From: a bacterium
GTDB taxonomy: Bacteria > Sumerlaeota > Sumerlaeia > MVZB01
Direction of reading: 5' to 3'
Assembly (NCBI GenBank): GCA_021372575.1
Contig: JAJFUE010000059.1
Span: 16,359 to 80,358 of the forward strand
DNA: 64,000 nucleotides
Shown: one piece after another, positions 8,794-60,281 of the stretch
Position numbering within the stretch: position 1 is the first letter of the stretch
Layout: each line of letters opens with the position of its first letter
Position numbers and translations under genes: made by a program
Notes under the pieces: model-generated
What the model saw: only the letters and a program-made list of their open reading frames with translations
The model's database searches: none
What the model was told of the DNA's origin: nothing

Positions 8794-8839
8794 ATCACTT
8801 TCTCCTTGTTCTATGAATCTGCTTGAAGTGTTCCCTTAT

Positions 8840-33008: not shown

Positions 33009-33019
33009 CTAATTGCCTT

Positions 33020-37374: not shown

Positions 37375-37375
37375 G

Positions 37376-39061: not shown

Positions 39062-39123
39062 ACCTCTGCGCGACTAAGGCGGTATTTGATACGCGCCACA
39101 TACCACGGAAGGGAAGCTGATTC

Positions 39124-39765: not shown

Positions 39766-40104
39766 CGCCATTCACGCGCTCAATTATTTCCCCCGTCGCC
39801 AGACCGATCTCGCGGCCGGGCGGGGGAATATTTATGTCAAAGAAGGGGGTTGTTTTTCATGTCCGGCTCGAGCTGTCAACGACATGAACCAGAGTTGTTC
39901 TTTACGATCACGCTGGATGAGAAGATAAGGCCTCGCTTGGCGACCTACGGCTTTATGGTCGAAGGCAGGCCTCAGCAAATGTGCCCGTTCAAAGATGTCC
40001 AAGGTCTCTCGCCCGCTCAGATATGCGCTCTTTCTCCGCCGCAGTTCCGCAAGTTGCCTGAACATCTTAATTAAACTGACTACAGTTCATAGCTGATCCC
40101 GACT

Positions 40105-40135
40105 GGGCGGTCCTTTGGGCCGCCCTTTACTTTTG
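40105..40135 (+). terminator. Rho-independent terminator after lysis-like cassette
   Basis: GGGCGGTCC-TTT-GGGCCGCCC stem-loop (9 bp stem, one G.U) followed by TTTACTTTT. Confidence 0.5.
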
Positions 40136-40527
40136 CCCTACCACGACCTTAGCCAAGGGCTCGTCGATCTGAACATTATCCCTTCCGACGTTGACAGTAA
40201 CCGTTGTCGGGATCAGAATTTAAGCGTCGGAGGCGGAGAAGCAGCGCTTCTGGAAGCAATGATCGAAGGACGGATTTTGACTGGCGGTTTGCACCCCAGA
40301 AATGCTGCCCAAAACCCCGGCCCGCTTCGCCTGATGTTCCGCGGTTATTCTAATGGGAAGCCGGCCTATTGGGTAGTCTGTCCTGAAATTTGCGAAACTG
40401 CCAAAACTGACTGTTCCCAAAACTAGATGGGTTCGCACCGGTCAAGGGAAATCTTTCGCAACGCGTGACGTTTGTGGGATAGTACGAGGAGCGGCTTGGC
40501 AAGTCACTTCCTGCGGAGGAGTAAATT

Positions 40528-41853: not shown

Positions 41854-42302
41854 GCCACCGCCCCGCCGCGCCGCGCGCGCCGGCCGATCTCGCTCGGGCG
41901 CAAGGTTGTTTGCCATCATCGTGATGGCATTCGCGCTGATTATTCTAGAATTTATCGAGTTCGCCCTGCGTGCGGCACTGGCTTACAAAACGCGGGCAAT
42001 CTGCATAACATCACAACAGCCGTGAACACTGGATTTCGGATTTCGGGAACAGTCAACAAAATAGGCATGTGCGGCGTCTATCAAAACCTGCATGATAATT
42101 GAGCTAATACCGTATCTCTATCCCTGATTAAACGGGGTCAACAGGCTGGGTGGCCGCCCCTTAAATATTTTCCTTCCGATCGCGTTCCTCAACACCAGTC
42201 TGGAGCCGGTTTTTATACAACGCGCTGCCGTGTCAAGCAACCGCACCCCGTATAATTCCGGTATCCGCGCGAGGTTGTTTCCCGTTCCCAAAAAGTAAAA
42301 AT

Positions 42303-42613
42303 CGTCAGTGATCCGTCACTGATCAATCACTGACGCGTCACTGACGAATCACTGATCGATCACGGATTGATCACTGACGCGTCAGTGACGCATCACTGAT
42401 TCGTCACTGATTGATCACTGATTTCTATAAACATTCTTATACGATCCAATTACCATTCAGGATACGAGCGGAGGCTTAACTCTTATAAACACAATGACCC
42501 GCATCGAATCACTGATGAATCACTGATTGATCACTGACGCGTCACTGATTCGTCACTGATCGATCACTGACGCGTCACTGACGAATCACTGATCGATCAC
42601 TGATCAATCACTG
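42303..42613. repeat. Iteron-like array: about 22 copies of an 11-bp unit (TCACTGA + 4-nt spacer) in two blocks flanking an AT-rich core (42422-42506); includes perfect 18-bp palindrome TCACTGACGCGTCAGTGA
   Basis: Direct reading: spacers drawn from cgcg, cgaa, tcga, ttga, tcaa, ttcg. Block 1 42303-42421 (11 units), block 2 42507-42613 (10-11 units). About 37-bp segment duplicated between blocks. Stops in all frames. Confidence 0.85.
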
Positions 42614-43797: not shown

Positions 43798-44436
43798 GTG
43801 AACCCACCGGAGAAGAACCCGAGAAAGAGGCGAAAATTCACGATGGAAGAACGCAGAACAAGACGCGGTTACGATTTCGGCGAAGTGGCGAGCGCTTTTC
43901 AAAAATCCGTGCGTCGGGGACTGCTCGACGACGCCCTCTACTGGGGCGTGGAGCTTTACCTGTCCGGCTTTCACGAATACGCCTGGAAACGAATGCGCGT
44001 GATGTGCTCGGAGGATATCGGACCGGCCGAGCCGAGCCTCCCCGCCCAGATCGCCGGGCTCTACGCGATGTTTCGGCAGTTCCTGGAATCCAAGCCGAAA
44101 CGGACCGGCGCGATGGGCTCGGAGAAACTCTTTTTCGTCCACGCGATCATGCTTCTCGTCCGCGCCCGCAAATGCCGGATCGTCGATCACGCGAATATTT
44201 ATCATTTCCGCGCTCATGACCAGATTCAGCGCCGCGAGATTCCCGATTGGGCTTTGGACAAGCACACCTATCGCGGCAAGCGCATGGGCCGCGGCATCGA
44301 TCACTTTTTCGAGACCGGAACGCTGCTCGAGAATCGTAGCGCCGAAATCGAGGACGTGTATCGCGACCGCGCAATGGAGTGGGCCGATATCGAAATGCCC
44401 ACGCAAGATGCCACAGGGCAGCTTGAGATGTTTTAA
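43798..44436 (+). CDS. Hypothetical protein (212 aa)
   Basis: ORF track, operon context; no motif recognised. Confidence 0.45.
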   Translation: MNPPEKNPRKRRKFTMEERRTRRGYDFGEVASAFQKSVRRGLLDDALYWGVELYLSGFHEYAWKRMRVMCSEDIGPAEPSLPAQIAGLYAMFRQFLESKPKRTGAMGSEKLFFVHAIMLLVRARKCRIVDHANIYHFRAHDQIQRREIPDWALDKHTYRGKRMGRGIDHFFETGTLLENRSAEIEDVYRDRAMEWADIEMPTQDATGQLEMF

Positions 44437-44495
44437 ACGCAAAATCCTCCGCAACTGCGGATGGAAAACTAGCCAACGGAGAGGAGAACCGTGAC

Positions 44496-46277
44496 ATGGC
44501 AATTGCAGCAAGAAATCGGGCGGACGATCTGCCCGAAGAACCGGCGCCGCCGGAGACCGAATCGATCCTCATGATCGATCTGGACAGGATCGAGCCTTCG
44601 CCCAAAAACCCGCGCCGCTTCCGCGACGGCGTGCGCGATCCGAAAATCCGAGAGATCGCCGAGTCGATCAATGCGGTAGGGGTCCTGCACCCGATTCTTG
44701 TCCGGCCGGTGAACAGCCATTACGAGATCATGGCCGGGGAGCGCCGCTGGCATGCCTCGCGCCTTGCCGGCCGGCCGACGATCCCCGCGATCGTGCGCGA
44801 GCTCGACGATAAGGCCGCCCTGGAAATCACCGTGATCGAGAACATGCAGCGCGAGGACCTGCACCCGATCGAGGAAGCGCGCGGTCTCAAGGAACTGCTC
44901 GACGCCGGTTACACCGCCGAGGATGCGGCCGCCCGGCTCGGCAAATCGACCGCCTGGATTTCGTGCCGGGCTCAGCTGGCCAAGCTCATTCCCGAGTTCG
45001 CTTCGGCGATGTCGGGCGAGGATGAAAACATCAACCTCACGGGCTGGAGCGTGAGGGCGATGGAGTTGGTTGCCCGCCTGCCCGAATCCACGCAAAAACT
45101 CCTTTGGGGCAAATTCTTGGAACACGCTGAATCGAATCAGAACGTCGAGCGAATCGAGCAAGCCACGACGAAAACGGTCGAGATGATCGTCGCCCGTTTC
45201 ATGCTCGATCTCAAAACCGCGCCGTGGGAGATGGACGCATGCTTTGGCGATTGTCCCGTGTGCGCCCAGTGTTCAAAGCGCAGTCAAGCCCAGCCCGATC
45301 TTTTCGGGGGCGATGAGGACGAGGACCGCTGCCTCGACCCGCAGTGCTGGGAGAAGAAATCCGACCTCTACACCGAGCAACTCGTAGTTCAAGCCGAGCG
45401 CGATTATCCGGGCATCTTGAAGGTCAGCTCCGATTATCAGACCGACTTGCCCGGCGTGCTCGGATACCAGCACTACACGATCAGCCGCGAGGGAGCCGAA
45501 GGCGCCGTCCCGGCCGTGGTTGTCGAGGGCCGGTCACCGGAAATGATTTGGGTGAAGGTCGATTCGGGCGAACGTTCGCGCAAGGCCGTTGCAAACGTAA
45601 CCGGCGAGAAGCAAGACGAGTCCACCCGGATCGCCGCCCGAAAGGCGCAGTACGACAAGCTCCGCCGCCGGATCGTGATGGACCTCATGGCGACAAAGCT
45701 CAAGGACCTTGTCGAAGATGGCGTGGGTCCCACTTGCGCCGTGACACCGCAGAAAATGCTCGCCTGCATCCTCGCAACCGGCCTGCCATATTCCCATCTC
45801 TCGACGATGGATTATGCGAGTCCCTGGCCAATCGTTCAGCGCAATCTGGACAAGTCCGAGGGCGAGCTCATGATGGACCTCGCCTTGCAGATGGCCGAGT
45901 CGTTCAACAAACGCCTGCACTCGTTCTATGACGAACCGAAGTGGGGTGAAGCGCTTGCGCTCTCGGAGCTGTTCGGGATCAAGCTGGACGCGCTGCTTCG
46001 GGAAGCGGCCGTTCAGAAACCATATCCCAAGTCCTGGCGTGCCCAGGCCGAGTCGTTGCCCCCAAGCCCGATCCCCGAGCGGGCTTTGTATTCGAACCCT
46101 GAGTCCCGTCATCCCTTCGAACCCACGAGTGAGAGCGACGAACCCACCGAAACCGAATCAGCCGATCCCGATGAAATGGCGGAGGACGGCCAACCCGACG
46201 AGGAGTGGGAGGACGAGGAACAGGACGATTACGAGGAAGAAGATTACGAGGAGGAGGGCGACGATGATGAAGACTGA
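44496..46277 (+). CDS. ParB/Spo0J-family N-terminal domain protein (593 aa) with Cys-rich (Zn-finger-like) middle region and poly-acidic C-terminal tail
   Basis: ..IEPSPKNPRRF..GVLHPILVRP..YEIMAGERRWHASRLAG..IPAIVREL.. ParB box motifs; CFGDCPVCAQC...CLDPQCW; C-terminus EEWEDEEQDDYEEEDYEEEGDDDED; GGAGAGGAGAA RBS. Confidence 0.6.
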   Translation: MAIAARNRADDLPEEPAPPETESILMIDLDRIEPSPKNPRRFRDGVRDPKIREIAESINAVGVLHPILVRPVNSHYEIMAGERRWHASRLAGRPTIPAIVRELDDKAALEITVIENMQREDLHPIEEARGLKELLDAGYTAEDAAARLGKSTAWISCRAQLAKLIPEFASAMSGEDENINLTGWSVRAMELVARLPESTQKLLWGKFLEHAESNQNVERIEQATTKTVEMIVARFMLDLKTAPWEMDACFGDCPVCAQCSKRSQAQPDLFGGDEDEDRCLDPQCWEKKSDLYTEQLVVQAERDYPGILKVSSDYQTDLPGVLGYQHYTISREGAEGAVPAVVVEGRSPEMIWVKVDSGERSRKAVANVTGEKQDESTRIAARKAQYDKLRRRIVMDLMATKLKDLVEDGVGPTCAVTPQKMLACILATGLPYSHLSTMDYASPWPIVQRNLDKSEGELMMDLALQMAESFNKRLHSFYDEPKWGEALALSELFGIKLDALLREAAVQKPYPKSWRAQAESLPPSPIPERALYSNPESRHPFEPTSESDEPTETESADPDEMAEDGQPDEEWEDEEQDDYEEEDYEEEGDDDED

Positions 46278-46653
46278 TAAACTCACAGCGCCCGAAATTG
46301 CATCGCGGCTCTCCCAGTTCATCGGCACTGAGAACTACTGGCGCCACTGGACCGGTGCGCTGGTCTATACCGACGGCGTGAAGGCGATGGCGGAAATGTG
46401 CGGGGCGTTCTGGCTTATCGACGCGATCGCCTCATGGCAACCGACGTGCCGCCGCGACGAGATGCTGCGTGAAATGCAGTTCTGGATCCTGAGACGCTTC
46501 GACGATCAGAAATGGGTTCTCGAAGTCGAACGCGACGAAGGCGATGTCGCTTTTCATCAGGAGATCGAGTTCAGCGATTTCCCGCTCCGTGAAATCAAGC
46601 TGTGGGTTCAGGCTGGGAGCCCGATGGTCCTGATGTTGCCCAGCGAGTATTGA
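46264..46653 (+). CDS. Hypothetical protein (130 aa; start MMKTDKL overlapping ParB stop)
   Basis: The N-terminal part of track ORF 45928-46653 is an alternate-frame overlap of the ParB gene with junk composition; the protein-like sequence begins at 46264. Confidence 0.4.
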   Translation: MMKTDKLTAPEIASRLSQFIGTENYWRHWTGALVYTDGVKAMAEMCGAFWLIDAIASWQPTCRRDEMLREMQFWILRRFDDQKWVLEVERDEGDVAFHQEIEFSDFPLREIKLWVQAGSPMVLMLPSEY

Positions 46654-46780
46654 TCGAAGACACGATTCAGCACACTCAAATTAACCCGATCCATTTTTGA
46701 ACCCGAGTCACTGCCTGATTCCAAACACACGGAAACGGGGTTGTAGAACCCTGCACAAAATTCAGAAAGGAACCCGAACG

Positions 46781-47098
46781 ATGAACGAATACATAAGCAT
46801 CGGTCCCGCGCCGCCCGGAGAGCCCTGTGCGCAAGTCGGCCAACCGGGCTACGAAGAACAGGCTCTGGCGGAATGCCGCCGCTATGTTGCCTTGCTTCGG
46901 CAGTATTTCGGCGAGGAGCCGCCCGGCGCGCGCCTGGCCGTCAAAAGCTTCCCCCACGATTTCGGCTCCTATTACGAAGTCGTCTGCTGGTACGACCGGA
47001 AGAAAAAGAAATCGATGGATTATGCCTTCCGCTGCGAAATCAACGGCCCCGCGACATGGGACGCGGGCGTGGAAATTCAGAAACCGGAGGTGGCCTGA
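46781..47098 (+). CDS. Hypothetical protein (105 aa; start MNEYISIGP)
   Basis: AAAGGAA RBS 8 nt upstream of ATG at 46781. Confidence 0.4.
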   Translation: MNEYISIGPAPPGEPCAQVGQPGYEEQALAECRRYVALLRQYFGEEPPGARLAVKSFPHDFGSYYEVVCWYDRKKKKSMDYAFRCEINGPATWDAGVEIQKPEVA

Positions 47099-47099
47099 C

Positions 47100-47897
47100 A
47101 TGTTGATCACGAAGGAACTGATCAAGGCCATGATCCCGTTTGCTCCCAAGAAAGACCTGCGCCGCGCGATCAAAACTGTCCGCTTGGAACGCAGTGCCGG
47201 CCAGGCTCGCGCTGTCGCCACGGACGGCAAGATCATGATGATCACCGAGTGGAAGGAGCCGTCGCCTGACGATGTGCCGCAGGTCGTGAGCGAGATCGAA
47301 GGCGAACGTCACGACATGGAAATGAGCATCGACGCTCAGGACTGGTCGGCACTGGCGACGATGGTTCCCAAGATGCGAACGTTGCCGGCCCTCGAGGTAG
47401 TGGCCATTGCCGAACGGATCAATGATCACCGCCTGGAAGTCGGCTCGACCGATTTCGACAACGAACAGCGCCGGCAGGTCCGCCCCGTGGAGATGAGTTA
47501 TCCCGATTACCGCTCCGTCCTGCCGCAGTACCAGATCGAGGGTGAGGACGCCAACGCGGTCGCATTGCTTGTGAACGCCGAGAAGCTCGCGGTCTTGCTC
47601 AAAGGTTTTCAGGATTCCGGATGCGTCGGGCGCACGCATGGTGAAGTGCTCATGGTCGTGCCCATTCACGCGCAGAAACCGATCCTCTTTCGAGGGTGGA
47701 ATCTTGAGAAGAGCATCGACGCGACCGCGATCATCACGCCCGTTCTTGACTGCGCCACGAAGCGCTCGTGGATGTTCTCCAACCGGGCATTCGATCCCGA
47801 GCCGAGCGATGACACCCCCGAGCAGGAAGATGTTCCCGCGCCTGACGAACAGGCGGGCGAAGAAACGAGCGAACCCCCACTTGCCGCCACTGCATGA
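47100..47897 (+). CDS. Sliding-clamp (DnaN beta-clamp)-like protein with only two clamp-type domains and acidic tail (265 aa)
   Basis: ..AVATDGKIMMI.. (compare DnaN ..VATDGHRLAV..), ..YPDYRSVLP.. (compare DnaN ..FPDYRRVLP..), C-terminal ..ITPVL.. (compare ..VMPMRL). Starts at TGACATG overlap. Real start internal to track ORF 46827-47897. Confidence 0.45.
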   Translation: MLITKELIKAMIPFAPKKDLRRAIKTVRLERSAGQARAVATDGKIMMITEWKEPSPDDVPQVVSEIEGERHDMEMSIDAQDWSALATMVPKMRTLPALEVVAIAERINDHRLEVGSTDFDNEQRRQVRPVEMSYPDYRSVLPQYQIEGEDANAVALLVNAEKLAVLLKGFQDSGCVGRTHGEVLMVVPIHAQKPILFRGWNLEKSIDATAIITPVLDCATKRSWMFSNRAFDPEPSDDTPEQEDVPAPDEQAGEETSEPPLAATA

Positions 47898-47929
47898 TGG
47901 CGGCCACTACTCCCAAAAGGAAAATAGTC

Positions 47930-49000
47930 ATGAAAACAGGACGAAGCCTCAGTGAAATCGCCGCTGAACTTGAGCGGCAGCAAAATGCCAAACGCGACTT
48001 CATCGCGGACACGCGCAAGATCGCGATGGAAATTCACGAAGCCGAACCGGTCGCCGGCGCGATGCTGCGCTTCGGCACGAACGGCCACACCGAGCGGTTC
48101 CCGATCACGGAGATTTGCCACAGGCAGATTGGCGATCGAGTCGGCATCCCCGACCGCTACTACAACAGGATGCTCGCCGAAGCGCCCGGCCTGCTCACCA
48201 CGAACGTGAATCACTGGTTTGAGGAGTGCCCCGAAATGCGTATGGTCCGCACGCTCGACGGCCGGGCGAGAGCGTTCCTCTCGAACCGCTACCGCCCCCT
48301 CGATAATTTCGACCTCGCCGAAGTTGTCCTGCCGATTTTGATGCAATCGGGATGCGAGATCGTCTCGACCGAGATCACCGAACGCCGTTTTTACCTCAAA
48401 GCCACGACGGACCGGATCCAGGGCGAAGTGGCCAAGGGGGACGTGGTTCAGGCCGGGATCGTTGTGAGCAACAGCGAGGTCGGCCTCAGCAGCCTTCGCG
48501 TTCAGGGCCTCATTTACCGCCTTGTCTGCACGAACGGCATGATCGCACCCGATTCTTCGCTGCGCCAGAAACACATCGGCCGATCCGGCTCAAGTAACGA
48601 GGAAGCATTCGAGCTTTTCAGCGATGAAGCGCGAATTGCTGATGACCGGGCGTTCTGGCTCAAGGTTCGCGACGTAGTCCGTGGCGTGATGACGGAAGAA
48701 ATCTTCAACGTCCTCATCGGCAAGCTCCGCGATGCCCGCGGCCAGAAAATCGAGCGCGATCCGCTGGAAGTGGTCGAACTGACCGCCCGGCGTTACTCGC
48801 TCTCCGATGGCGAGCGCGGCGGCGTCCTGCGTCACCTCATCGCGGACGGCGATTTGAGCCGCTACGGTCTCGTGAACGCCATCACTCGCACGTCTCAGGA
48901 TTCCGAATCCTATGACCGGGCGACCGAACTGGAATCGCTCGGCGGCCAGATCCTTGAACTGGAGCCTAACCAGTGGCACACGCTCGCATGCGCGGCCTGA
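47930..49000 (+). CDS. DUF932/DUF945-family phage/plasmid-associated protein
   Basis: ..AFLSNRYRPLDNFDLAEVVLPIL.. and overall layout typical of the DUF932 family common in ICEs and prophages; AAAGGAAAA RBS before ATG 47930. Confidence 0.5.
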   Translation: MKTGRSLSEIAAELERQQNAKRDFIADTRKIAMEIHEAEPVAGAMLRFGTNGHTERFPITEICHRQIGDRVGIPDRYYNRMLAEAPGLLTTNVNHWFEECPEMRMVRTLDGRARAFLSNRYRPLDNFDLAEVVLPILMQSGCEIVSTEITERRFYLKATTDRIQGEVAKGDVVQAGIVVSNSEVGLSSLRVQGLIYRLVCTNGMIAPDSSLRQKHIGRSGSSNEEAFELFSDEARIADDRAFWLKVRDVVRGVMTEEIFNVLIGKLRDARGQKIERDPLEVVELTARRYSLSDGERGGVLRHLIADGDLSRYGLVNAITRTSQDSESYDRATELESLGGQILELEPNQWHTLACAA

Positions 49001-49061
49001 ACGCCGCCCCAGGGGGCGCGGCCTGGCATGAAACGCGCACTCTTTTTTCGAGAGGTTTTCC

Positions 49062-49361
49062 ATGCGAGTTCTCAATCAAAACTCAGTCGCTGAAATGGCC
49101 GCGCCGTACTTTGCAAACGTCGAAAGCATTCGCGCGCACCAAGTGGCCGTTTACGTGATGTGTGGCGGGGGATTCCTGGGCCAGTTCGCCGCCCAGCGCC
49201 CTGCGGATTTTTACATCGACGGCCGTGTGAGCGGATTGCCATATTCACGCCGCAAGATCAGTCAGGCCGTCAATACACTCGCGACGCTGGCCCGGTGTGC
49301 GGGCATGGATCCCCGCCATCTGCCGCCTTCGCCGGCGTTTCACAACTGCGGGATTTTCTAA
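49062..49361 (+). CDS. Hypothetical protein (99 aa)
   Basis: ORF track; weak RBS. Confidence 0.3.
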   Translation: MRVLNQNSVAEMAAPYFANVESIRAHQVAVYVMCGGGFLGQFAAQRPADFYIDGRVSGLPYSRRKISQAVNTLATLARCAGMDPRHLPPSPAFHNCGIF

Positions 49362-49375
49362 CCGGAGGTCGCTCA

Positions 49376-49593
49376 TGATCACCGCGCATTACGACGCGTA
49401 CGGCTACTGGATCGAATCGGACGGCCTAGAAATCTACCGCGCCGGCAATCACCCACTGGATTCGGCGGCCTATACCGCCGAAGGCGCCCTGAGCCTTCCC
49501 ACTATTCGGGCCTATGCACAGCAAACAGCAAAAGAGCTCGCCGCCGAACGCAGCGAGCCCTATGTCGGGATCGAACACATGCGGGAGTGGTAA
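49376..49593 (+). CDS. Hypothetical protein (72 aa; start MITAHYD)
   Basis: GGAGG RBS before ATG 49376. Confidence 0.35.
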
Positions 49594-49595
49594 GC

Positions 49596-50252
49596 TCAGT
49601 GGAACTTCAATCCGCCACGCACAAGCCCGTAGAGCTTTGCCTTTTTAGGCATCGGCATCGGGTAGATGGACGGCGTGAGGCCGATCAAGAACGCCATCTC
49701 GGCGGTCGACCCGACAATCTTGATCGCATATCCCTCGCCGGGGATTTCGATGATGATCTGCTTGCCCGACGCCGGCATCGCCGTGGTCGGTTCGACGAAC
49801 ACGATGTCCCCGGCCTAGTAGTGAGGCGCGAGGGCTTTGCCACCGACCTGCAAAGCGACCATTTCTCGGTCGACGCCGGAGAGGAACAGATTATACATCG
49901 ACCAAGTGATCGATACCGAATCCTTGGATTCTTCATTGATCGAAACGAAGTCGGCAGCACGGCTGCGCGTTTTGCCGGCCGCGATCTCGCCGATGATGGG
50001 AATTTCAGTCGTCTCGCCCTTGATCTCTTCGCCGATGAGGTCCTTGACGCTCATTCCGAGCGAGCTGGCGATCTGCTCGATTTTATCGTCGGTCGGGAAG
50101 CGCACACCGTTTTCCCAATGAGAATACAGCGAAACGGTCACGGCGAACCGGCGCGCCATGTCTTTTTGCATGAGCTTGCGGTCCTTCCGGTAATGCTTGA
50201 TCACGTACCGGAAATGATCCTTGACCGCTGTGGAGACACCGCGCTCGAGCAT
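49596..50252 (-). pseudogene. cI/LexA-like repressor (XRE HTH + S24-like domain) interrupted by in-frame TAG (49815-49817) and lacking the catalytic Ser (GGKAL instead of GDSM)
   Basis: ORFs 49815-50252 and 49596-49802 are in the same frame, separated only by TAG. Translation ..LQVGGKALAPHY*AGDIVFVEP..IKIVG..KLYGLVRGG follows the LexA C-domain layout. GGAGG RBS before ATG 50252. The N-terminal 145 aa product may still act as repressor. Confidence 0.5.
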
Positions 50253-50498
50253 ATGAACCTCCGCTGTGCCGGGCTGGCCGAAATTCCTCTAGGCGGGGAG
50301 ATTGTACAGCCCACGTCTAATGAGCGCAGAATATACAGGCGCTCGGAGAAATGCAAGGGCAACGTTGTATAGCCGTGTAAAGCCATGGGTGAGGTGGGAC
50401 CAAAAATAATACCGACAAAGTATAAAAACGTGCTTTTCACGCTTTACTATACCGTTCAACTGTAATATACATGCGCATCTTATGGAGGGGACGCCCCA
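50253..50498. promoter_or_regulatory. Divergent repressor/cro switch region with candidate operators (TGTACA / TGTATA / TGTAATATACA half-site palindromes)
   Basis: Intergenic between divergent HTH genes; contains gattGTACAgcc, cgttGTATAgcc, cTGTAATATACAtg. Confidence 0.4.
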
Positions 50499-50753
50499 AT
50501 GAACCAGCCACCACGAACCCGCCGAGTGTTCGATCCATCGCTCCTCAAATCGGCCCGTGAACGCGCCGGCATGACTCAGCACGAGCTTTCGACCCGTTTG
50601 GTCGAGCGCGAGGTCTCCACCGGAGTTCAGCGCGAAATGATTTGGCAGTGGGAGAACGGAGCGCGCATTCCGCGCGCCGTGGCTTTGGCCAATATGGCCG
50701 ACATTCTGGGCGTCTCGCTCGATTCGTTTTTCAGGCAAGAGGAAGTGGCCTAA
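50499..50753 (+). CDS. Cro-like XRE-family HTH regulator
   Basis: ..RAGMTQHELSTRLVEREVSTGVQREMIWQWENGARIP..LANMADILGVSLDSFF HTH_XRE pattern; divergent from repressor. Confidence 0.6.
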   Translation: MNQPPRTRRVFDPSLLKSARERAGMTQHELSTRLVEREVSTGVQREMIWQWENGARIPRAVALANMADILGVSLDSFFRQEEVA

Positions 50754-50757
50754 CACG

Positions 50758-51672
50758 ATGCGTATCCGCACGATCAAGCCCGAGTTCTGGACGTCGCTGG
50801 ACATGGCCAAGGTCAGCGAGCCGGCTCTTATCCTCGCGGTCGGCCTCCTGAACTACGCCGATGACAAGGGCTACTTCGTCGCCGATGCACGCCTGATCCA
50901 TGGGGCGCTTACACCGCTGCGTGAGCTTTCGCGGCCGATCATGGAATGCTTGGGGGAACTTCGGGAGGCGGGCTTCATAAACCTCTGCACGGGCACGAAT
51001 GGCCGCCCGTATGGGCATGTCGTAAATTTCCTCAAGCATCAAACCATCAATCGGCCCAAGGCGAGCAGGATTGCGCCGTTTTGGTCCGACACGCCCCTGG
51101 ACTGTGGAGATAGTCGGCAGGTCACGGATATACCGATTCCCGTGTGTTCCTCGGCTGTTCAAGTAAATGAAACGGTTCCGGCCGATACCGAAATCGCTTC
51201 TGTCACTGAACCGACACCGGATGAACCCGCTATACCCAGTGAACCGGAGCTTGCCAGTTCATTGGCGTCTGCCGCTGAAGTCACACTGTTCAGCGATGAG
51301 CCTGAACCCGAACCGGAAGCACCGAGAGAGCCTGAGCAACCGAAAAGCCACTGGATCATGGAGCTTTGGAACGCTCACGCGCCGACCGCCTTGCCGCGTT
51401 GCACAACCTGGTCCAAAAAACGCCAGACGGCAGCGAGGGCTCGGCTCAAGGAGTATCCAGATCGCGGCCATTGGCAACAGGCCATCGAGTCCATCGCGGA
51501 TTGCCCGTTCCTGATGGGTCAGAACGACCGGGGCTGGAGCGCCAGTATTGACTGGCTCCTGCTTCGGCCCGACTCGATCACGAAAATTATGGAAGGACAC
51601 TATCGATGCCGCGGGCGGCCGCCCGCGCTCGTCGGATCATCCATCGCCGGCGAGGGAGATCTGAGTTTCTAA
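50758..51672 (+). CDS. Replication initiator / replisome organiser-like protein, probable
   Basis: Position immediately upstream of DnaC-like loader; N-terminal ..IKPEFWTSLDMAKVSEPALILAVGLLNYADDKGYF.. winged-helix-like; acidic Pro-rich linker. Confidence 0.35.
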   Translation: MRIRTIKPEFWTSLDMAKVSEPALILAVGLLNYADDKGYFVADARLIHGALTPLRELSRPIMECLGELREAGFINLCTGTNGRPYGHVVNFLKHQTINRPKASRIAPFWSDTPLDCGDSRQVTDIPIPVCSSAVQVNETVPADTEIASVTEPTPDEPAIPSEPELASSLASAAEVTLFSDEPEPEPEAPREPEQPKSHWIMELWNAHAPTALPRCTTWSKKRQTAARARLKEYPDRGHWQQAIESIADCPFLMGQNDRGWSASIDWLLLRPDSITKIMEGHYRCRGRPPALVGSSIAGEGDLSF

Positions 51673-51693
51673 ACTTGAAGGGAGGTGAAAGCA

Positions 51694-52398
51694 ATGCAGG
51701 AGAACACGGCACGAGTGATTGAACTGGAAGAAGAACCCGAACCCCGCGATCCGTTCAGCGATCCGGCATATCTGCGGAACTGGCTGATCGAGAACGACAT
51801 GATCGCGGCCGGCATCCCGAAACGGTTTCGTCCTGGGTTTGCAGCCTACGAAGAGAGAACTCCCGAATGCGCGTTCCTGCGTCGGAAAGCGCTGGCCTGG
51901 GCAAACGAATTCGATCCGCGTGACCCAACGAAAGGTTTTGCCCTGACCGGCGTGACAGGCGCGGGCAAGACGCACCTGGCCGCGGCGATCGCGCGGCGAT
52001 TGATCGAGCGTCGATGCTCGGTGATGTGGGTCAACACGGCCGCGCTGTTCATGCGCATCCGGTCCACCTACGGACACGACAGCGATGAGAGCGAAGAGGA
52101 CTTGATTGATGAGCTGGTCGCACCTGATCTGCTCGTCCTCGACGACCTCGGGGTCGAGCGTCCTACGGCCTGGGTCCTGGAGCGGCTTTACGTGATCCTC
52201 AATCGCCGCCACGAGGAGTGCAAGGTGATCATGTTCACTTCCAATTACGATGGCAGGGAACTGACCGAGCGCCTTCGCACGCCCGAAGCCGGGGACCTGG
52301 CCGACCGCTTGATCTCGCGATTGGTCGGCATGGTCGAGTCGATCGGCGATTTTCCAAAGAAGGATTGGCGCAAGGAAGCCTGGAGGCAACGCCAATAA
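51694..52398 (+). CDS. DnaC/IstB-like AAA+ helicase loader
   Basis: Walker A GVTGAGKTHLAAAIA, Walker B LLVLDDLG; GGGAGG RBS before ATG 51694. Confidence 0.7.
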   Translation: MQENTARVIELEEEPEPRDPFSDPAYLRNWLIENDMIAAGIPKRFRPGFAAYEERTPECAFLRRKALAWANEFDPRDPTKGFALTGVTGAGKTHLAAAIARRLIERRCSVMWVNTAALFMRIRSTYGHDSDESEEDLIDELVAPDLLVLDDLGVERPTAWVLERLYVILNRRHEECKVIMFTSNYDGRELTERLRTPEAGDLADRLISRLVGMVESIGDFPKKDWRKEAWRQRQ

Positions 52399-52512
52399 AG
52401 AAAAGACCCCGTCCGCTGGTTCAGAGCGGGCGAGGCCAACATCTCACTGCGATGGTGCATTTTTTACGGCACCATCCCGTCCAAGTCAACACGAAAGAAC
52501 GGGAAGAACGAA

Positions 52513-53646
52513 ATGAATGAGCAACCGCAGACAACAGCTTTACAGAAGGTTCAGCCCGAAGCCGAACTGCTGCCGCTTACTCCGGCAGTCGCATCGAGCT
52601 TCTGGCTCAACCGCGACAAGTTCGAGCACATCCAGCGCATCGCGAAGGTGTTCGCCGAATCGAACCTCGTGCCGGCGCAGTATCGCGGCAAGATCGCCGA
52701 CTGCATCATCGCCGCGCAGATGGCCTTCCGCCTGAGCGTTGATCCCTTCATGTTCATGCAGAACACATACGTGGTTTACGGCCGCCCCGGCATGGAAGCC
52801 AAGCTCGCGATCGCGCTGGTCAACGAGCGCGGTCCTTTCGATGGTCCAATACAGTGGCGATTCAGTCGCACATGCAACCAGTGTGGCGGCCTTGGCGAAA
52901 AGGACAACGCCCCCTGCACGAGATGCAACGGAACCGGCAGCGTCCCCGCGAAGATCGTCCCGCCGGCCGCGATGATCCCCGACGATTTCACCTGCACGGC
53001 ATTTGCCACGCACCGCAAGACGAACGACATCTGCGAAGCGAGAATATCTTGGAAGATGGTGAAGGATGAGGGCTGGTTCAAAAAAGACGGGTCGAAATGG
53101 CAGACGATGCCGGAGCTCATGTTCCGTTACCGCTCGGCCACGTTCCTCGCGCGCCTCTACGCTCCCGAGTGCCTCATGGGCATGCAGATGATCGACGAAC
53201 TGCAGGACGTGGGCGTCCGCACGATCACGATCGAAAAGGGCGCAGTCACTCACGACACCAGCAAAAGCGATCCGCCCGAGGCCGATCCCGACGCTTTCAA
53301 AAAGCCGGAAAACAACGGCGGGAACGGCAGCACTCAGGATGTCCAAAACGAGGCCGCAAACGCTCCCCAGGGCGAAAACACCGACGCACCCAACTCAACA
53401 CCCACGCCCGAAGCCCAGAAACCCCAGGATGCAGCCAAGCCTGAAACCGTGAAGCGCGGCCGTCCGGCCGGGAAGAAGCAGCATGACATCGAGCGCGTCG
53501 TGAACGTCCTCAAGGATCACGCGCTGTTCCATGACATGAACGAAAACGCCCTTCGCGAGCTCATTCGCACTCAGGGCGCCGAAGCCGCGGCCGAACGCCT
53601 TGGCATCGGGGCCGAGGAATTCGCCGCAATGATCAATGAAGCCTGA
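52513..53646 (+). CDS. RecT-family single-strand annealing protein with inserted CxxC-X10-CxxC zinc ribbon
   Basis: ..SSFWLNRDKFEHIQRIAKVFAESNLVP..DCIIAAQMAFRLSVDP.. RecT pattern; CNQCGGLGEKDNAPCTRCNGTGS insert. Confidence 0.6.
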   Translation: MNEQPQTTALQKVQPEAELLPLTPAVASSFWLNRDKFEHIQRIAKVFAESNLVPAQYRGKIADCIIAAQMAFRLSVDPFMFMQNTYVVYGRPGMEAKLAIALVNERGPFDGPIQWRFSRTCNQCGGLGEKDNAPCTRCNGTGSVPAKIVPPAAMIPDDFTCTAFATHRKTNDICEARISWKMVKDEGWFKKDGSKWQTMPELMFRYRSATFLARLYAPECLMGMQMIDELQDVGVRTITIEKGAVTHDTSKSDPPEADPDAFKKPENNGGNGSTQDVQNEAANAPQGENTDAPNSTPTPEAQKPQDAAKPETVKRGRPAGKKQHDIERVVNVLKDHALFHDMNENALRELIRTQGAEAAAERLGIGAEEFAAMINEA

Positions 53647-54859
53647 ACGAATGGGGCGAGTTGTTCATCGCCCCACATATCTTCTCAATGGAGTTCTTAC
53701 GATGGCAGCAGTTGCGACAGTAGTTGAAATAAAACAGAATCCGCTCCGCGCAAGCAATTTGCAGCGGGCATGGCTTTGCCCGCCTTCGGTGTGGCGTGAA
53801 TCGGAGATGCCCGAGATGGAAGCTGGCGCGGCGGCCGAGGAAGGCCGAATGCTCCACGCCGCCGTGGTTCGCGCGTGGAAACGAGGTGACTTCACCGGTC
53901 TCGATGATGAACAGCGCGGCGCGGTTGCCGGTTGCGTTCGGTTCCTGAACGAGAAAGCCGAAGGCGCACTGCAGGACCTAATCATCCTAGAGCAGACGAT
54001 TCCGGTTCTCGATTCGGACAGCCAGCCGCTCGTCGAGCGCGAGGTCACCCCTGACGTAGTGATCCTTCGCGGCGGAGGCCTCGCCCTGGTCATCGACTGG
54101 AAAACAGGCCGAGGCGCGCCGCAGTTCGACGCCGGCCATGACCTGCAGCTTCTCACGTATGCGATCGCGGTGCGCAATCATTACACTTCGGCCAAGATCA
54201 CCCGCGTCCACGTGTTCCGGTTTCATCCACGCCTGTGGGATGAGAACCGTGAGACATCGGTTTCCTACGGTGGCTCGGATGACGATTGGCATCAGCGTGA
54301 AGGCATCCTGAGCGAAATCATCCTTCAATCCCAGCCCGATGCGAACGCGGTCCCGGGTGCCGCGCAGTGCCAGTACTGCAAAGCCAAGATGATCTGCGAA
54401 GAGTTCCGCGCGTGGAGCGAGCCCGATCCATCCACGCTTCCGGCGCCGGTGAACACCGCGCTCACCCCGGCCAAGCTGGGCCAGATCCTCCAATACCGCG
54501 ACCGGCTCAAGCTGCTCGACAAAATGATGTCCGACGCCGAGGACATGGCCAAACAAGCCATAGGCCAGGGTATCGAGATCGTTTCGCCCGATGGCACTCG
54601 CTGGGGTCTTAAGGAAGGCTCGCCGACCCGCACGATTTCCGATCTGTCTCGTGCTCGCGCGGCGATGCTCCCGCATATTCCGTCCGATGCGTTCGATTCG
54701 GCCTGCAAGGTGAGCATCACGTCCTTAGAGAAGGTTTTCAAGACGGCCACGCGGCTCAAGGGCAAAGCCGCTGCTGAGGCGTTCGCCTCGACGATGGACG
54801 GCGCGATCGAATTTCGCAAAAGCGCCCCGAGCCTCGTTGCGATGAAAGCAGGTGCATGA
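53636..54859 (+). CDS. PD-(D/E)xK (Cas4/RecB-like) exonuclease with 4-Cys cluster, partner of RecT (likely true start near 53702)
   Basis: ..ALVIDWKTGRG.. (D-x-K motif), N-terminal Cys (AWLCPP) plus C-terminal CQYCKAKMIC. Confidence 0.55.
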   Translation: MKPERMGRVVHRPTYLLNGVLTMAAVATVVEIKQNPLRASNLQRAWLCPPSVWRESEMPEMEAGAAAEEGRMLHAAVVRAWKRGDFTGLDDEQRGAVAGCVRFLNEKAEGALQDLIILEQTIPVLDSDSQPLVEREVTPDVVILRGGGLALVIDWKTGRGAPQFDAGHDLQLLTYAIAVRNHYTSAKITRVHVFRFHPRLWDENRETSVSYGGSDDDWHQREGILSEIILQSQPDANAVPGAAQCQYCKAKMICEEFRAWSEPDPSTLPAPVNTALTPAKLGQILQYRDRLKLLDKMMSDAEDMAKQAIGQGIEIVSPDGTRWGLKEGSPTRTISDLSRARAAMLPHIPSDAFDSACKVSITSLEKVFKTATRLKGKAAAEAFASTMDGAIEFRKSAPSLVAMKAGA

Positions 54860-55098
54860 TGGCCAATTCAGTGCAAGCATCGTCGCTCTATCAGAAGCTC
54901 AAGCCTTATCTGGCCATCGCCGAACACAGCGAGCCGTCCCGTCCGGCGACGAAGTGGATTTACACCCACTACCTCGCGGGCAGCGGTTTCGTGCCGGTTT
55001 ACTGGGCATCGCAACTACGGCCCGGCTGGCGACGGCTTTCGTTCGAAGAATTCTGCCGAGTTTACGAGATTCCGGTGGTTGCCAGAAAGGCAGCCTGA
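54856..55098 (+). CDS. Hypothetical protein (80 aa)
   Basis: ORF track, ATGA overlap with upstream gene. Confidence 0.3.
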   Translation: MMANSVQASSLYQKLKPYLAIAEHSEPSRPATKWIYTHYLAGSGFVPVYWASQLRPGWRRLSFEEFCRVYEIPVVARKAA

Positions 55099-55127
55099 AA
55101 CCCGCCGTGTGCTGACGGCCGAACTCA

Positions 55128-55466
55128 TTGATTCGATCATGCCAGGGAAGGCGATTCATGACTGGGAAGACGTTCGACACGATTGCGAAGGCCGCCGCTG
55201 AACAAATCGGCGGCCTGATCCTCGAAGCACAGAAGGAGATCCTCGCGGCTTACGACAAAGCCCATGAAAATCACGAGGGCGAAAAGTTCAAGTTCCCCAT
55301 CGGGGTCAAGATCATGCTCGAGCCGCTGGGTGCCGCCGGCATCCAAGTCACGACGAGCATCGCATGGACCACGAAGGGCCGTCTCGATGGCGTTGGCATC
55401 CTGATCCAGGAAGGGCCGGACCTCTTCTCCGGCTCCGGAAACGGCAGCAAAACCAGCCGGGGCTGA
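55128..55466 (+). CDS. Hypothetical protein (about 100-112 aa)
   Basis: ORF track. Confidence 0.3.
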   Translation: MIRSCQGRRFMTGKTFDTIAKAAAEQIGGLILEAQKEILAAYDKAHENHEGEKFKFPIGVKIMLEPLGAAGIQVTTSIAWTTKGRLDGVGILIQEGPDLFSGSGNGSKTSRG

Positions 55467-55470
55467 CCAG

Positions 55471-55689
55471 ATGGCTCGAGCCGAGAAATGGCCGGAAAAT
55501 CGGGCGATCAAATTTGGCGACGATAACTGGGTCACCTATCACGGCCGCCCGATCGGTCAAATCATACCTACCGGACGCTTCTACAGTGGCGGCAAGGAAC
55601 AGTTCTGGACCAATACCGCCGGCGATTTTTGTTACTCGAGAGACGGAGCGGCATACGAACTGACGGTCAGACACGTAAGGCGGAAGTGA
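55471..55689 (+). CDS. Hypothetical protein (72 aa)
   Basis: ORF track. Confidence 0.3.
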   Translation: MARAEKWPENRAIKFGDDNWVTYHGRPIGQIIPTGRFYSGGKEQFWTNTAGDFCYSRDGAAYELTVRHVRRK

Positions 55690-56135
55690 TGGTGATCGAG
55701 TTTTTCGCTCCGGGAGTCCCGCAGCCGGGCGGCAGCAAGAAGGGTTTCGTGAACCCCCGGACCGGCCGCGTTGTGGTCCTCGAAGACGCCAAACACAACA
55801 AGGACTGGCGGGCGGTGGTTTCAATTATGGCTCACTACGCGCACTCCGGTGAGCCACTAAGCGGCCCGGTAAGGCTCGATATCACATTCATCATGCCCCG
55901 GCCGAAGGCTCACTTCCGAAGCGGCCGTCACGCCGAGACTTTGAAAGAGAACGCACCCATGTTCCACACGGTGAAACCCGATCGCACAAAACTGCTCCGC
56001 TCGACCGAGGATGCCCTGACCGACGCCGGCATCTGGCGAGACGACACCCAAGTAGTCGCCGGCGAGATCAAGAAAATCTACGGCCCCCGGCCAGGAGCTC
56101 ATATTCGAATCACGCAGATCGAGGAAGTCAGATGA
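55689..56135 (+). CDS. rusA: RusA-family Holliday junction resolvase (start MVIEFFAPGVP)
   Basis: ..KPDRTKLLRSTEDALTDAGIWRDDTQVVAGEIKK.. matches the RusA catalytic region (..PD.DNL.K...DAL......DD.Q....). Confidence 0.65.
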   Translation: MVIEFFAPGVPQPGGSKKGFVNPRTGRVVVLEDAKHNKDWRAVVSIMAHYAHSGEPLSGPVRLDITFIMPRPKAHFRSGRHAETLKENAPMFHTVKPDRTKLLRSTEDALTDAGIWRDDTQVVAGEIKKIYGPRPGAHIRITQIEEVR

Positions 56136-56428
56136 TCGAGATACAGCCAAACGCCCTTTACTCCAAGGAAGATTTGGAAGGTTTGCTTGAGCCAGTTGGA
56201 TTGAGCGCCGAAGCGTTCATTGAGCGCTTGAAACCACGCAAGGTGTTCCGCGCCCTTTATTACGGCAAGGACCTCATCGAAGCCCTGAGCACCGCGTCTC
56301 CGATAAAGGAACGCTCCCCTGCCCCGAATGCACACTCATTTAAACGGGTCCGATCGATTAAGCCTATCACGGCCAGTCCCGGTGTTCCGGGACAGAAAAT
56401 CATCGAGGAATTTGGATTGAGAGGATAG
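56132..56428 (+). CDS. Hypothetical protein, possible excisionase/RDF by position
   Basis: Small gene immediately upstream of integrase; no motif. Confidence 0.3.
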   Translation: MIEIQPNALYSKEDLEGLLEPVGLSAEAFIERLKPRKVFRALYYGKDLIEALSTASPIKERSPAPNAHSFKRVRSIKPITASPGVPGQKIIEEFGLRG

Positions 56429-56437
56429 CCCGCCAAG

Positions 56438-57712
56438 ATGTCGGCTGAAAAAGAAACGACCACGCTCGTAGAAAAAATTGGAATTGTAACAATTCGTTCC
56501 GGTGTAAGCCCCCAGAAATCGAAGGGTTTCTGGGTCCTTGAATATCGTTGCCCAGCGGCTTACCCCGGTGATCCCAATCGAGGCCGTCGGATTCGGCGGC
56601 GGATCGATCATGAGGCGATGTCTCTGGCCGATGTACGAAAGACGGCTGATCATCTCACAGCACAAGCATACCAGGGTAAAGGGTATCTACCTGAGCGAGA
56701 TGAAAAAGGGAAAGGGACTACTATCCAGGATGGAATTATTGAAGCACTCAGGCTGACGAACACTTTACCCGAAGTCCGCAAAGAACGTGCGCGCCTCGCG
56801 CTTCGGTTTGTTGAATGGCTTGCCGTGAATTACCCGCAAGTTCAGACTTGGGATCAAATGAGGCCGGCGGTGCTTCAAGACTACGTGCTGCATTTGGAAT
56901 CAAATAAACTCGCGTTCGACACAGTGAGATTGGCGATCGCCCCTATAAAATTGGCGTGGAGGCACATGGCGGACAATTTTCCGGATACTGTTCGGCCCCT
57001 ACCGCGCATTCGTCAGAAACCGGCCCCGAAGAGAGAGATCGACTGTCTCGATGCCGATGACGTTGCCGCGTTGCTGGAATGGCTTAAAAAACATGCGCCC
57101 GATATCTGGCCTCTCGCGATGCTGCAAACTCTGGCCGGTTTACGAATGCTGGAGACGGCTGCTTTGCGCCGCCAGGACGTAAACCTGAAGCAAGGGACAA
57201 TCAGGATCACGAATACGCCGAATCACTCTGTCAAAACAGCCACGAGTGATCGGCTGATACCTATCTGTAAAGAGGTTCGCAGTTGTTTGAAATCGGAGCT
57301 TGCGAATCAGAAGGTGTTTCCGAAGACCGGTGAGATATTCACAAATACAAAGGGCAATCCATGGACAAAGAATGCCTTGGGTTGGAAGTGGAATCGCCTT
57401 CGGAGTAAGCTGGATAAAAAATCGGGAAAGCCGATGATTGTGCTTCAAACGGGGCGCGCCGCATTGGCCGATTTCCAACCGCATCGTCTCCGCGCTTCGT
57501 TCGCGACGATGGCCGGCCGATTGGGAGTTGCAGATAGACTGCTTCAGGCGTATATGGGACATGCGCCGGTCGATGTTCTTGGAGCGCACTATCGCAAGAT
57601 CGGACTCGAGGATTTGAAAGCGGTGTCACAGAAGATGGATAAATGGGGCAACTTAAAGGCTGTTGGTCAAAAACGGGCAAAAAAAGCTCGGCCGGCTTCA
57701 CGAAAACACTGA
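56438..57712 (+). CDS. int: Tyrosine integrase (phage integrase family)
   Basis: C-terminal catalytic region ..HRLRASFATMAGRLGV..LLQAYMGHAPVDVLGAHY (R..H..R..Y); adjacent to tRNA fragment. Confidence 0.8.
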   Translation: MSAEKETTTLVEKIGIVTIRSGVSPQKSKGFWVLEYRCPAAYPGDPNRGRRIRRRIDHEAMSLADVRKTADHLTAQAYQGKGYLPERDEKGKGTTIQDGIIEALRLTNTLPEVRKERARLALRFVEWLAVNYPQVQTWDQMRPAVLQDYVLHLESNKLAFDTVRLAIAPIKLAWRHMADNFPDTVRPLPRIRQKPAPKREIDCLDADDVAALLEWLKKHAPDIWPLAMLQTLAGLRMLETAALRRQDVNLKQGTIRITNTPNHSVKTATSDRLIPICKEVRSCLKSELANQKVFPKTGEIFTNTKGNPWTKNALGWKWNRLRSKLDKKSGKPMIVLQTGRAALADFQPHRLRASFATMAGRLGVADRLLQAYMGHAPVDVLGAHYRKIGLEDLKAVSQKMDKWGNLKAVGQKRAKKARPASRKH

Positions 57713-57740
57713 TTTTATTGGCCCTTTTTTGATGTCCATG

Positions 57741-57790
57741 ACCGCTTCCCAAGCTGGATGTCGCGAGTTCGAATCTCGTTTCCCGCTCCA
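57741..57790 (+). other. tRNA 3' fragment (anticodon-loop-like TTCCCAA, T-arm GCGAG-TTCGAAT-CTCGT, acceptor TTCCCGC, discriminator T, CCA); probable prophage att site
   Basis: Canonical T-loop and encoded CCA at 57788-57790. No complementary 5' acceptor strand (GCGGGAA) or D-arm in the preceding 40 nt, so not a complete tRNA. Followed by T8 run. Confidence 0.55.
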
Positions 57791-59807: not shown

Positions 59808-60281
59808 TTACTTCTCGGACGCCAGTCGCGAGTCCGGTTCAAAATTCATGGGGGCTTCGATGGATATTTTGGGGAAATCCGGATGTGCCGGATTGATCAG
59901 GTAGTTGACCTCACCAGGCGTCACGGCACTCGGAACTTCAAGAACCGCCGATGAACAATCGGCGATCCATTTCCCGCCAATTTCCTGTGTTTCCGCCATC
60001 GTTTCCGGAGCATTCCATCCCTTGGGCAGGGATGCCGGGGAAACCGATTTCACAAGGCTTTCGTCAAAGTTCACCGCGATCACGGAAAAGTTATCATGAA
60101 TGGTAGAGATGTCCTCCACGTGAACAAGCAATTCCAGTGTAGCCAGGGATAGCGAGCTCGAGGCATAGACCATGCCCGTGCCGACGAAATTCCAGCGCCC
60201 CCCGTTTATCCTTGCGCCTTCGCCATCGAACGCCGTTGCAAGATGTTTCTTGTGAGTGATGCGGTATGCACGGATCGTCAA
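59808..60281 (-). CDS. RES-domain toxin
   Basis: ..GGRWNFVGTGMVYASSSLSLATLELLVH.. (R..E..S arrangement of the RES family). Confidence 0.6.
   Translation of the reverse strand: MTIRAYRITHKKHLATAFDGEGARINGGRWNFVGTGMVYASSSLSLATLELLVHVEDISTIHDNFSVIAVNFDESLVKSVSPASLPKGWNAPETMAETQEIGGKWIADCSSAVLEVPSAVTPGEVNYLINPAHPDFPKISIEAPMNFEPDSRLASEK

Follow-up and report, generated by a model that had tools for sequence, protein, structure and literature searches.

A cI-type prophage repressor of a clade without the S24 nucleophile serine, and an in-frame TAG private to one metagenome-assembled genome

The repressor gene of the prophage described here raises the question of what two changes in one gene mean, namely an in-frame TAG codon and the replacement of the catalytic serine of its C-terminal domain. 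The initial annotation offered two readings, a decaying and non-inducible cryptic prophage, or a repressor that works as a truncated helix-turn-helix (HTH) protein under a control other than RecA-mediated cleavage. We found that the two changes need separate answers. The TAG arose either very recently by mutation or as an error of the assembly and does not point to decay or special regulation, and the locus is a member of a small and rare clade of immunity repressors.

The window (the whole stretch of DNA that was analysed, 64,000 nucleotides) contains a siphovirus-like prophage of about 45 kb, and the gene under discussion is its cI-type immunity repressor gene (Table 1). The recognisable head, tail, terminase, lysis, replication and integrase ORFs are all open. 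Genes for RecT, an exonuclease and RusA lie on the plus strand between the replication genes and the integrase, and the host genes to the right of the prophage comprise a RES/Xre toxin-antitoxin pair, rpsI, rplM and efp. The ribosomal proteins encoded in the metagenome-assembled genome behind the window group with those of metagenome-assembled genomes of Candidatus Sumerlaeia. The host contig L026 ends exactly at the fragment resembling a tRNA 3' end. No direct repeat of at least 12 nt was found between 57746-57790 and the left part of the window, and neither ARAGORN nor Rfam recognised a complete or partial tRNA in the window. The repressor, cro-like and replication genes have the same layout in the relatives L001, L002, L023, L024 and L027. 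In all relatives with known context, the repressor is divergent from the replication genes, with a cro-like gene except in the P0011 contigs, and two of these contigs also carry an integrase.

Table 1. Coordinates of the repressor gene, its parts and its surroundings in the window
Feature	Position	Strand	Remark
cI-type repressor frame	49596-50252	-	218-219 codons, one internal TAG
In-frame TAG, codon 146	49815-49817	-	sole break in the repressor frame
HTH_3/HTH_19 (XRE/cI-type) N-terminal DNA-binding domain	50037-50201	-	residues 18-72
S24-fold (LexA/cI C-terminal domain-like) beta-barrel	49644-50000	-	residues 85-203, across the stop
Ala92-Gly93, LexA/cI scissile-bond position	49974-49979	-	by alignment
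Ala140 codon (GCC), S24 nucleophile Ser position	49833-49835	-	by alignment
Lys178 codon, S24 general-base Lys position (in AIK)	49719-49721	-	by alignment
Patch with all three differences from L024	49816-49842	-	27 nt
Terminator-like hairpin	49533-49561	-	12 pairs then T-run, about 35 nt past the full-length stop
Divergent intergenic control region	50253-50498		246 bp, candidate operators
Cro-like 84-aa HTH protein	50499-50753	+	divergent from the repressor
O-like replication gene	50758-51672	+	
DnaC-like replication gene	51685-52398	+	
Integrase	56438-57712	+	
Fragment resembling a tRNA 3' end	57746-57790		right edge of the prophage extent
ParB-like/DUF6876/DUF932 operon	44496-49000	+	
Large terminase	35355-36944	-	
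Portal	33889-35355	-	
Major head	32025-33008	-	
Tape measure	21869-25420	-	
J-like tail protein	15895-20862	-	
Endolysin	12251-12838	-	
Siphovirus-like prophage, minimum extent	12251-57790		endolysin to the fragment resembling a tRNA 3' end

On the minus strand, the ORF 49815-50252 opens with ATG and encodes 145 aa, and the ORF 49596-49802 encodes 68 aa from an internal GTG. Both lie in a common frame that is split only by the TAG, which bears out the initial annotation. The joined translation contains LQVGGKALAPHY directly before the TAG and AGDIVFVEP directly after it, continues through AIKIVG and ends in KLYGLVRGGLKFH at the final stop. The NCBI annotation splits the repressor into two genes, MCE5229035.1 (145 aa) and MCE5229034.1 (68 aa). 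In the homologues, codon 146 is TCG (Ser) in L024 and L001, and encodes Met, Leu, Arg, Asn or Gln in the others; as the residue varies in this way, the position is non-critical. The TAG was also said to be a genuine stop elsewhere, and we agree. Within the prophage, six ORFs of 100 aa or more end in TAG, among them those of the tape measure and the portal. So does the ORF 8840-11560 (906 aa), in which Pfam recognised neither TPR nor any other family at E<=0.001. A recoded genome or a suppressor was rejected in view of these genuine stops and because ARAGORN found no tRNA gene within the window.

The identity of the gene as a cI/LexA-type prophage repressor was upheld by Pfam, by profiles and by the structure match, with HTH and S24 parts that continue across the stop. 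Pfam matched the joined protein to HTH_19 (2e-08) and HTH_3 (4.6e-08), and to Peptidase_S24 (PF00717) at 27.3 bits (gathering cut-off 23.3); the S24 match was lost when either fragment was taken by itself. Profile matches to solved structures were found for LexA (3k2z, 1.6e-27) and lambda cI (1.1e-23). The AlphaFold model of P0001 (pLDDT 86.5) consists of an HTH bundle (helices 8-73) and a beta-barrel, and its best Foldseek matches were the lambda cI C-terminal domain and LexA with a probability of 1.00 (2ho0, TM 0.74). On this model the TAG falls between strands 132-136 and 150-155, and five barrel strands are lost after it.

The replacement of Ser by Ala at the dyad, with the Lys strand retained, had been read in the correct register, as our alignment of 22 sequences indicated. 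The Ala of the motif GG[K/N/S/T]AL shares its column with the Ser of G-x-S-M in 14 of 14 canonical relatives. The same column aligns with the G-x-S-M of the LexA (GMSM, GESM) and lambda cI (GNSM) structures, whose serines are S119 and S149, respectively, in the textbook numbering. The column of Lys178 is the Lys column of LexA and lambda cI, and this residue is encoded 3' of the TAG and is absent from the 145-aa product. At the sequence level, Ala92-Gly93, in the stretch IPIIGEIAAGK, does not vary within the close clade. A shifted nucleophile, Ser139 of GGSAL, was considered and rejected, since position 139 is S/S/S/T/N/K/E/D among the sequences, which is the usual spectrum of the residue at -1 in G-x-S-M. 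In the lineage of the window it is Asn or Lys. That this position keeps the normal spectrum also indicates that the register of the alignment is sound.

The Ser-Lys dyad and the Ala-Gly site of S24 repressors are used here as defined in PMC13148647. Set beside the self-cleaving S24 repressors, the protein has the fold, the Lys and the Ala-Gly, and lacks the nucleophile Ser. As a cI-type immunity repressor it has the HTH domain and the divergent cro-like layout, and its frame is interrupted in the window. Given the role of the Ser-Lys dyad and the replacement of the nucleophile, self-cleavage of the 218-aa protein, whether stimulated by RecA or at alkaline pH, is not expected.

The initial annotation had taken the Ser-to-Ala change as part of the same lesion as the stop; we found it to be a fixed and selected trait of a clade instead. 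A search of 5.8 billion proteins found only five relatives, with 69-92% identity and an unbroken frame of 218 aa each. The more distant clade members P0006, P0010 and P0011 came from a profile search of 1.84 billion representatives, which also returned many ordinary HTH-S24 repressors, and a further intact copy, P0157, was found by cluster look-up. A further indexed search for repressor relatives gave nothing new. About nine clade sequences are known, all metagenomic, and the copies of the family in public data other than that of the window are all of full length (8/8). Close relatives were found neither in phage GenBank DNA nor in IMG/VR, and the closest deposited phage repressors are at most 24% identical. 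The JGI metagenome contigs gave only HTH matches to the repressor, and the GTDB genomes gave only the P0003 contig, which was already in the set. Our literature search found no paper on phage repressors with an S24 fold that lack the Ser.

Among eight clade members, the Ser column holds Ala in six, Lys in P0010 and Pro in P0011, and each of the 14 outgroup relatives keeps G-x-S-M. The five close intact homologues and P0157 all have Ala140. The exceptions within the clade are P0010, with Arg at the position of Lys178, and P0011, without the Ala-Gly. The C-terminal part of the clade proteins shows a dN/dS of 0.09-0.19, which means purifying selection, and the values for the window against L001 are 0.094 upstream of the stop and 0.093 downstream. 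These comparisons indicate that the loss of Ser is old, fixed and selected throughout the clade, and separate in origin from the TAG. The C-terminal domain appears to be an old non-catalytic S24 fold and not a product of decay. It is most likely kept for oligomerisation or for the binding of a partner.

The region between the repressor and the divergent cro-like gene carries strict TGTAYA/TRTACA boxes at 50303, 50332, 50366 and 50466, and a weaker one at 50447. Four strict boxes in 246 bp stand against 0.05 expected from the window-wide frequency, and the box blocks are conserved in four loci with repressors that are merely 73-92% identical. We regard these boxes as candidate operators. A sigma-70 promoter scan of the switch region gave no hit. 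We suggest that the normal product is the 218-aa protein, whose HTH domain would bind the boxes in the control region that its gene shares with the cro-like gene, and whose S24-fold barrel would serve only oligomerisation or partner binding. Induction would then follow a route other than RecA, such as an antirepressor or proteolysis. No Pfam or PHROG family of antirepressors was recognised in the small ORFs near the switch or elsewhere in the prophage. One of the small prophage ORFs, at 49375-49593 (72 aa), is conserved. In this scheme the TAG, which together with two other substitutions falls in a stretch of 27 nt, would lie outside the design of the repressor.

The origin of the TAG was clarified by near-identical DNA from another sample. 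P0157 is identical to the joined protein of the window at 216 of 218 positions, with Asn139 for Lys and Ser146 for the stop, and the protein after the stop is 100% identical to it. Its contig, L024 (run SRR15035648), matches window positions 43839-56447 over 12,609 bp with no gaps and three mismatches. L029, from the same run, matches 32633-42355 over 9,723 bp with one mismatch. In total, 22.3 kb of phage DNA contain four differing bases, and three of them lie inside the 27-nt patch, which surrounds the former active-site loop; the probability that the three differences of the 12,609 bp cluster like this by chance is about 1.4e-5. From L024 to the window, the changes are TCG to TAG at 49816, AAC (Asn139) to AAA (Lys) at 49836 and GGC to GGT at 49842 (synonymous, Gly137), which on the plus strand are G>T, G>T and G>A. 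L001, from a phage that is 87% identical, reads as L024 at all three sites, so the alleles of the window are derived ones. The TAG is thus private to this metagenome-assembled genome (MAG) and derived. By the initial annotation, its view would be refuted if the TAG were a sequencing or assembly error and the intact protein of other isolates carried Ser at the dyad. Half of this is borne out. Intact copies do exist and have TCG (Ser146) at the position of the stop, but at the dyad position they still have Ala.

Two other sources of the patch were rejected. A chimeric assembly with an L001-type phage is out, because L001 has GGC, AAC and TCG like L024, and the alleles of the window match no known relative. 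A diversity-generating retroelement or another templated mutation is also out, as the window repeats neither the patch nor the 181 nt around it, only chance 8-mers match at the three sites, and none of the annotated ORFs was recognised as a reverse transcriptase.

The explanation that we favour, with somewhat better than even confidence, is that the TAG is a consensus error or a minority haplotype of the MAG assembly. Private substitutions as dense as these, three within 27 nt, fit a poor-quality path at a dip in coverage much better than point mutation. Two of them change the protein, in a gene whose dN/dS is about 0.09, as would be the case for changes that selection has not filtered. In the host flank, the same two assemblies are separated by a second cluster in rplM (61910-61939), with three SNPs in 30 nt, where the odd allele (A118E, in a conserved ribosomal protein) is in the other assembly; both clusters thus span no more than 30 nt. 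In addition, a null repressor in a pristine integrated prophage would be unstable, if the biology of the lambda cI amber mutants is a guide. On the other side, assemblers usually take the majority path, and the 115-kb contig suggests reasonable coverage, which together argue for a real haplotype at appreciable frequency.

Such a haplotype would be a genuine and very recent null allele, in which a multi-nucleotide mutation produced both the stop at Ser146 and N139K in a fraction of the phages. We consider this possible, though clearly less probable than an artefact. The 145-aa product would retain the HTH domain and lose five barrel strands; as it resembles the inactive N-terminal fragment of cleaved repressors, it would presumably be a loss-of-function allele. 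The allele could belong to a clear-plaque lytic replicator that dominates the consensus, or to a lysogen that is protected by a co-resident homoimmune prophage. The consensus of a MAG is generally the majority allele, and three derived changes on an otherwise identical background are what a new mutation would give. Multi-nucleotide mutation events occur, and lytic growth of a phage population commonly selects for clear-plaque variants that lack a functional repressor, whose reads could outweigh the others in the consensus of a prophage region. Immunity in trans could come from L001, which is found in the neighbouring run SRR15035646 with a 92%-identical repressor and near-identical boxes. The end of L026 at the tRNA-like fragment may reflect a mixture of integrated and free forms, although a simple assembly break is equally likely. 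However, three substitutions in 27 nt are rare for a real point mutation, and the similar cluster in rplM suggests a technical cause. The window has no second copy of the repressor, and the truncated product is credited in the cluster listing to NCBI sources only.

A bolder reading starts from the S24 fold, the Ala-Gly site and the Lys, which the Ser-less clade keeps under purifying selection, and proposes that the domain has been repurposed as a docking or sensor module, or as a substrate that is cleaved in trans, and, separately, that the TAG haplotype is a repressor-null (clear-plaque type) variant in the course of a sweep through a phage population in the environment. We think this unlikely. 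If it were true, the repurposed domain would be a RecA-independent induction switch for phages of Sumerlaeota-like hosts, with a hypothetical antirepressor as partner.

That the prophage is cryptic and decaying, with the repressor as one of several genes being lost, is very improbable. An in-frame stop within a key gene would suggest it, and neither a left attachment site nor a complete tRNA was found in the window, but the left end may lie beyond it. Against decay, the 22.3 kb shared with the contigs of another sample differ by only four bases, the recognisable phage ORFs are open, and dN/dS after the stop equals that before it. The Ser-to-Ala change is found across the clade and is no part of any decay. 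A near-identical copy is intact and selection on the gene is not relaxed, so there was no time for decay, which all but excludes this first proposal of the initial annotation.

Its second proposal, that the 145-aa HTH protein is the working repressor under non-RecA control, fares slightly worse and we hardly credit it. The HTH domain and the linker are intact. The isolated N-terminal domains of the lambda and 434 repressors bind their operators weakly, and in mycobacteriophage BPs a truncated repressor is the active form, both of which count for this reading. However, all eight other members are of full length with a C-terminal part under purifying selection, and the isogenic copy is intact. 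On the model the stop cuts the barrel and would remove the part that is expected to make the dimer interface. The terminator-like hairpin lies 3' of the full-length stop, and the attachment region, 8 kb off, speaks against a truncation that depends on integration.

The least probable reading, that the TAG is decoded by a suppressor tRNA or readthrough or that re-initiation at GTG 49802 gives a two-piece protein, draws on the tolerance of position 146 for many residues and on the stretch GGGGA 4 nt ahead of that GTG, but other genes of this prophage, those of the tape measure and the portal included, have TAG as their stop, no tRNA was found in the window, and the ordinary TCG of the isogenic copy means that the stop is not a conserved recoding site.

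For the inducibility of the prophage, the stop codon is no evidence either way pending the reads, and the identical phage with an intact repressor is present in SRR15035648. The durable point is a rare clade of repressors that have the S24 fold minus its nucleophile, for which self-cleavage after RecA activation or DNA damage cannot be assumed. More generally, a nonsense codon that is seen in a single MAG assembly says little about pseudogenisation when private substitutions lie next to it.

Compared with lambda cI, LexA and UmuD (MEROPS S24, PF00717), the protein has the same N-terminal HTH and C-terminal S24 beta-barrel, the Ala-Gly at the scissile position and the Lys at the position of the general base. 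As in lambda, a divergent cro-like gene faces the repressor, with repeated boxes in between. The clade of the window differs in having Ala for the nucleophile Ser, and about 15 additional residues (ITWSMYNLFL) that separate the cleavage-site strand from the core of the barrel. Judged by its residues, the repressor would not be classed as an autoprotease, as it lacks the serine on which the S24 catalytic definition turns.

The mycobacteriophage BPs would be a parallel in that the shorter form of the repressor would be that of the lysogen. In BPs, the truncation arises from an attP inside the repressor gene, whereas here the homologous frame continues past the stop, at a distance of 6-8 kb from the integrase and attachment region. 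Integration-dependent immunity of the BPs type was rejected, since the sequence after the stop is homologous C-terminal coding sequence and the integrase and tRNA-like fragment lie at 56438-57790. The amber (sus) and clear-plaque mutants of lambda cI share with the window a nonsense codon in the repressor of an otherwise intact temperate phage and a predicted loss of immunity. They differ from it in that the allele here comes from one metagenome assembly, is accompanied by two adjacent substitutions and is perhaps not real.

MEROPS families include non-peptidase homologues, and non-cleaved repressors under antirepressor control are well known from the Gifsy prophages and from coliphage 186 (CI/Tum), so the category is not new. 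The Gifsy repressors, 186 CI/Tum and VP882 cI/Qtip are maintenance repressors whose inactivation is independent of a Ser-Lys dyad of their own, as would hold for the protein of the window. The repressors of Gifsy and 186 are not known to have an S24-fold C-terminal domain, and the cI of VP882 is still cleavable. Repressors that are inactivated by antirepressors are most likely the functional analogy for the intact 218-aa protein.

Comparison of the host right flank of the prophage with the SRR15035648 contig showed four differing bases, at 61910, 61927 and 61939 in rplM and at 63036 in efp. Three of the four fall inside 30 nt of rplM, where the unusual allele, A118E, is that of the SRR15035648 contig. 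The patch of substitutions separating the repressor gene from its near-identical copy on L024, a phage contig of the same run, shows the same three-in-30-nt pattern. Because this pattern is repeated in rplM and in the repressor gene, the data suggest that the clustered differences between the two assemblies have a technical or recombinational source.

At the right end of the prophage, immediately downstream of the integrase gene, positions 57746-57790 hold a fragment similar to a tRNA 3' end; this fragment reads GTCGCGAGTTCGAATCTCGTTTCCCGCTCCA and is followed by a T-run. The tRNA that it resembles is presumably tRNA-Gly. ARAGORN and Rfam found no complete tRNA in the whole window, and no repeat matching the fragment was present at the left side of the window. 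The host contig L026 of SRR15035648 stops exactly at 57764, within this fragment. Another contig of that run, L029, consisting of phage DNA, terminates at 42355, within the first of two TCACTGA repeat arrays. These arrays are separated by a spacer of ~85 bp and sit in an ORF-poor gap of 1.2 kb, upstream of a plus-strand operon of ParB_N/HTH_ParB, DUF6876 and DUF932 genes. They may form a centromere-like or iteron array. The coordinates of these and other features are collected in the table.

Features of the prophage and its flanks (window positions)
Feature	Position	Strand	Remarks
Open frame, >2,347 codons	7041 to past position 1	-	extends off the window
583-aa ORF	7042-8793	-	
906-aa ORF	8840-11560	-	
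TET-associated glycosyltransferase-like gene	37376-38197	-	PF20691, 1.5e-09; PHROG beta-glucosyl-HMC-alpha-glucosyltransferase
SUKH-1/SMI1-KNR4 protein, 441 aa	40528-41853	+	prophage gene
Repeat array 1	42305-42423		~10-11 copies, 11-bp-phased unit TCACTGA + 4 variable bases
Repeat array 2	42506-42613		~10-11 copies, same unit and phasing
Small ORF	49062-49361	+	without known family; converges on repressor gene
72-aa ORF	49375-49593	+	without known family; converges on repressor gene
RES-domain toxin and Xre/MbcA/ParS-type antitoxin pair	59808-60835	-	host DNA, between prophage end and rpsI-rplM

The 72-aa ORF ends 3 nt from the stop of the repressor gene. It is kept at the equivalent position in contigs L022 and L024, and truncated ORFs occupy this position in L001 and L023, which carry relatives of the repressor. 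This ORF is a candidate partner of the repressor switch. The homologue P0003 is carried by L002/L004 (JAMDEO010000057.1), a contig binned as Actinomycetota, in which an ISL3 transposase and an integrase flank the repressor/cro-like pair. No phage structural genes were visible on this 10-kb contig; the P0003 locus may represent either a remnant or another type of element. The contig has a coverage of 2.4, and its binning may be unreliable.

On the left, window positions 1-11560 hold a series of very large minus-strand genes, with a GC content of 50% against 58% in the prophage and the right flank. A Pfam search of the 906-aa and 583-aa ORFs found no family in either. The longest frame is absent from the ORF lists because it leaves the window.

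Among the accessory genes of the prophage, the glycosyltransferase-like gene hints at DNA base hypermodification. The prophage also encodes a member of the SUKH-1/SMI1-KNR4 family, which is frequently tied to toxin immunity.
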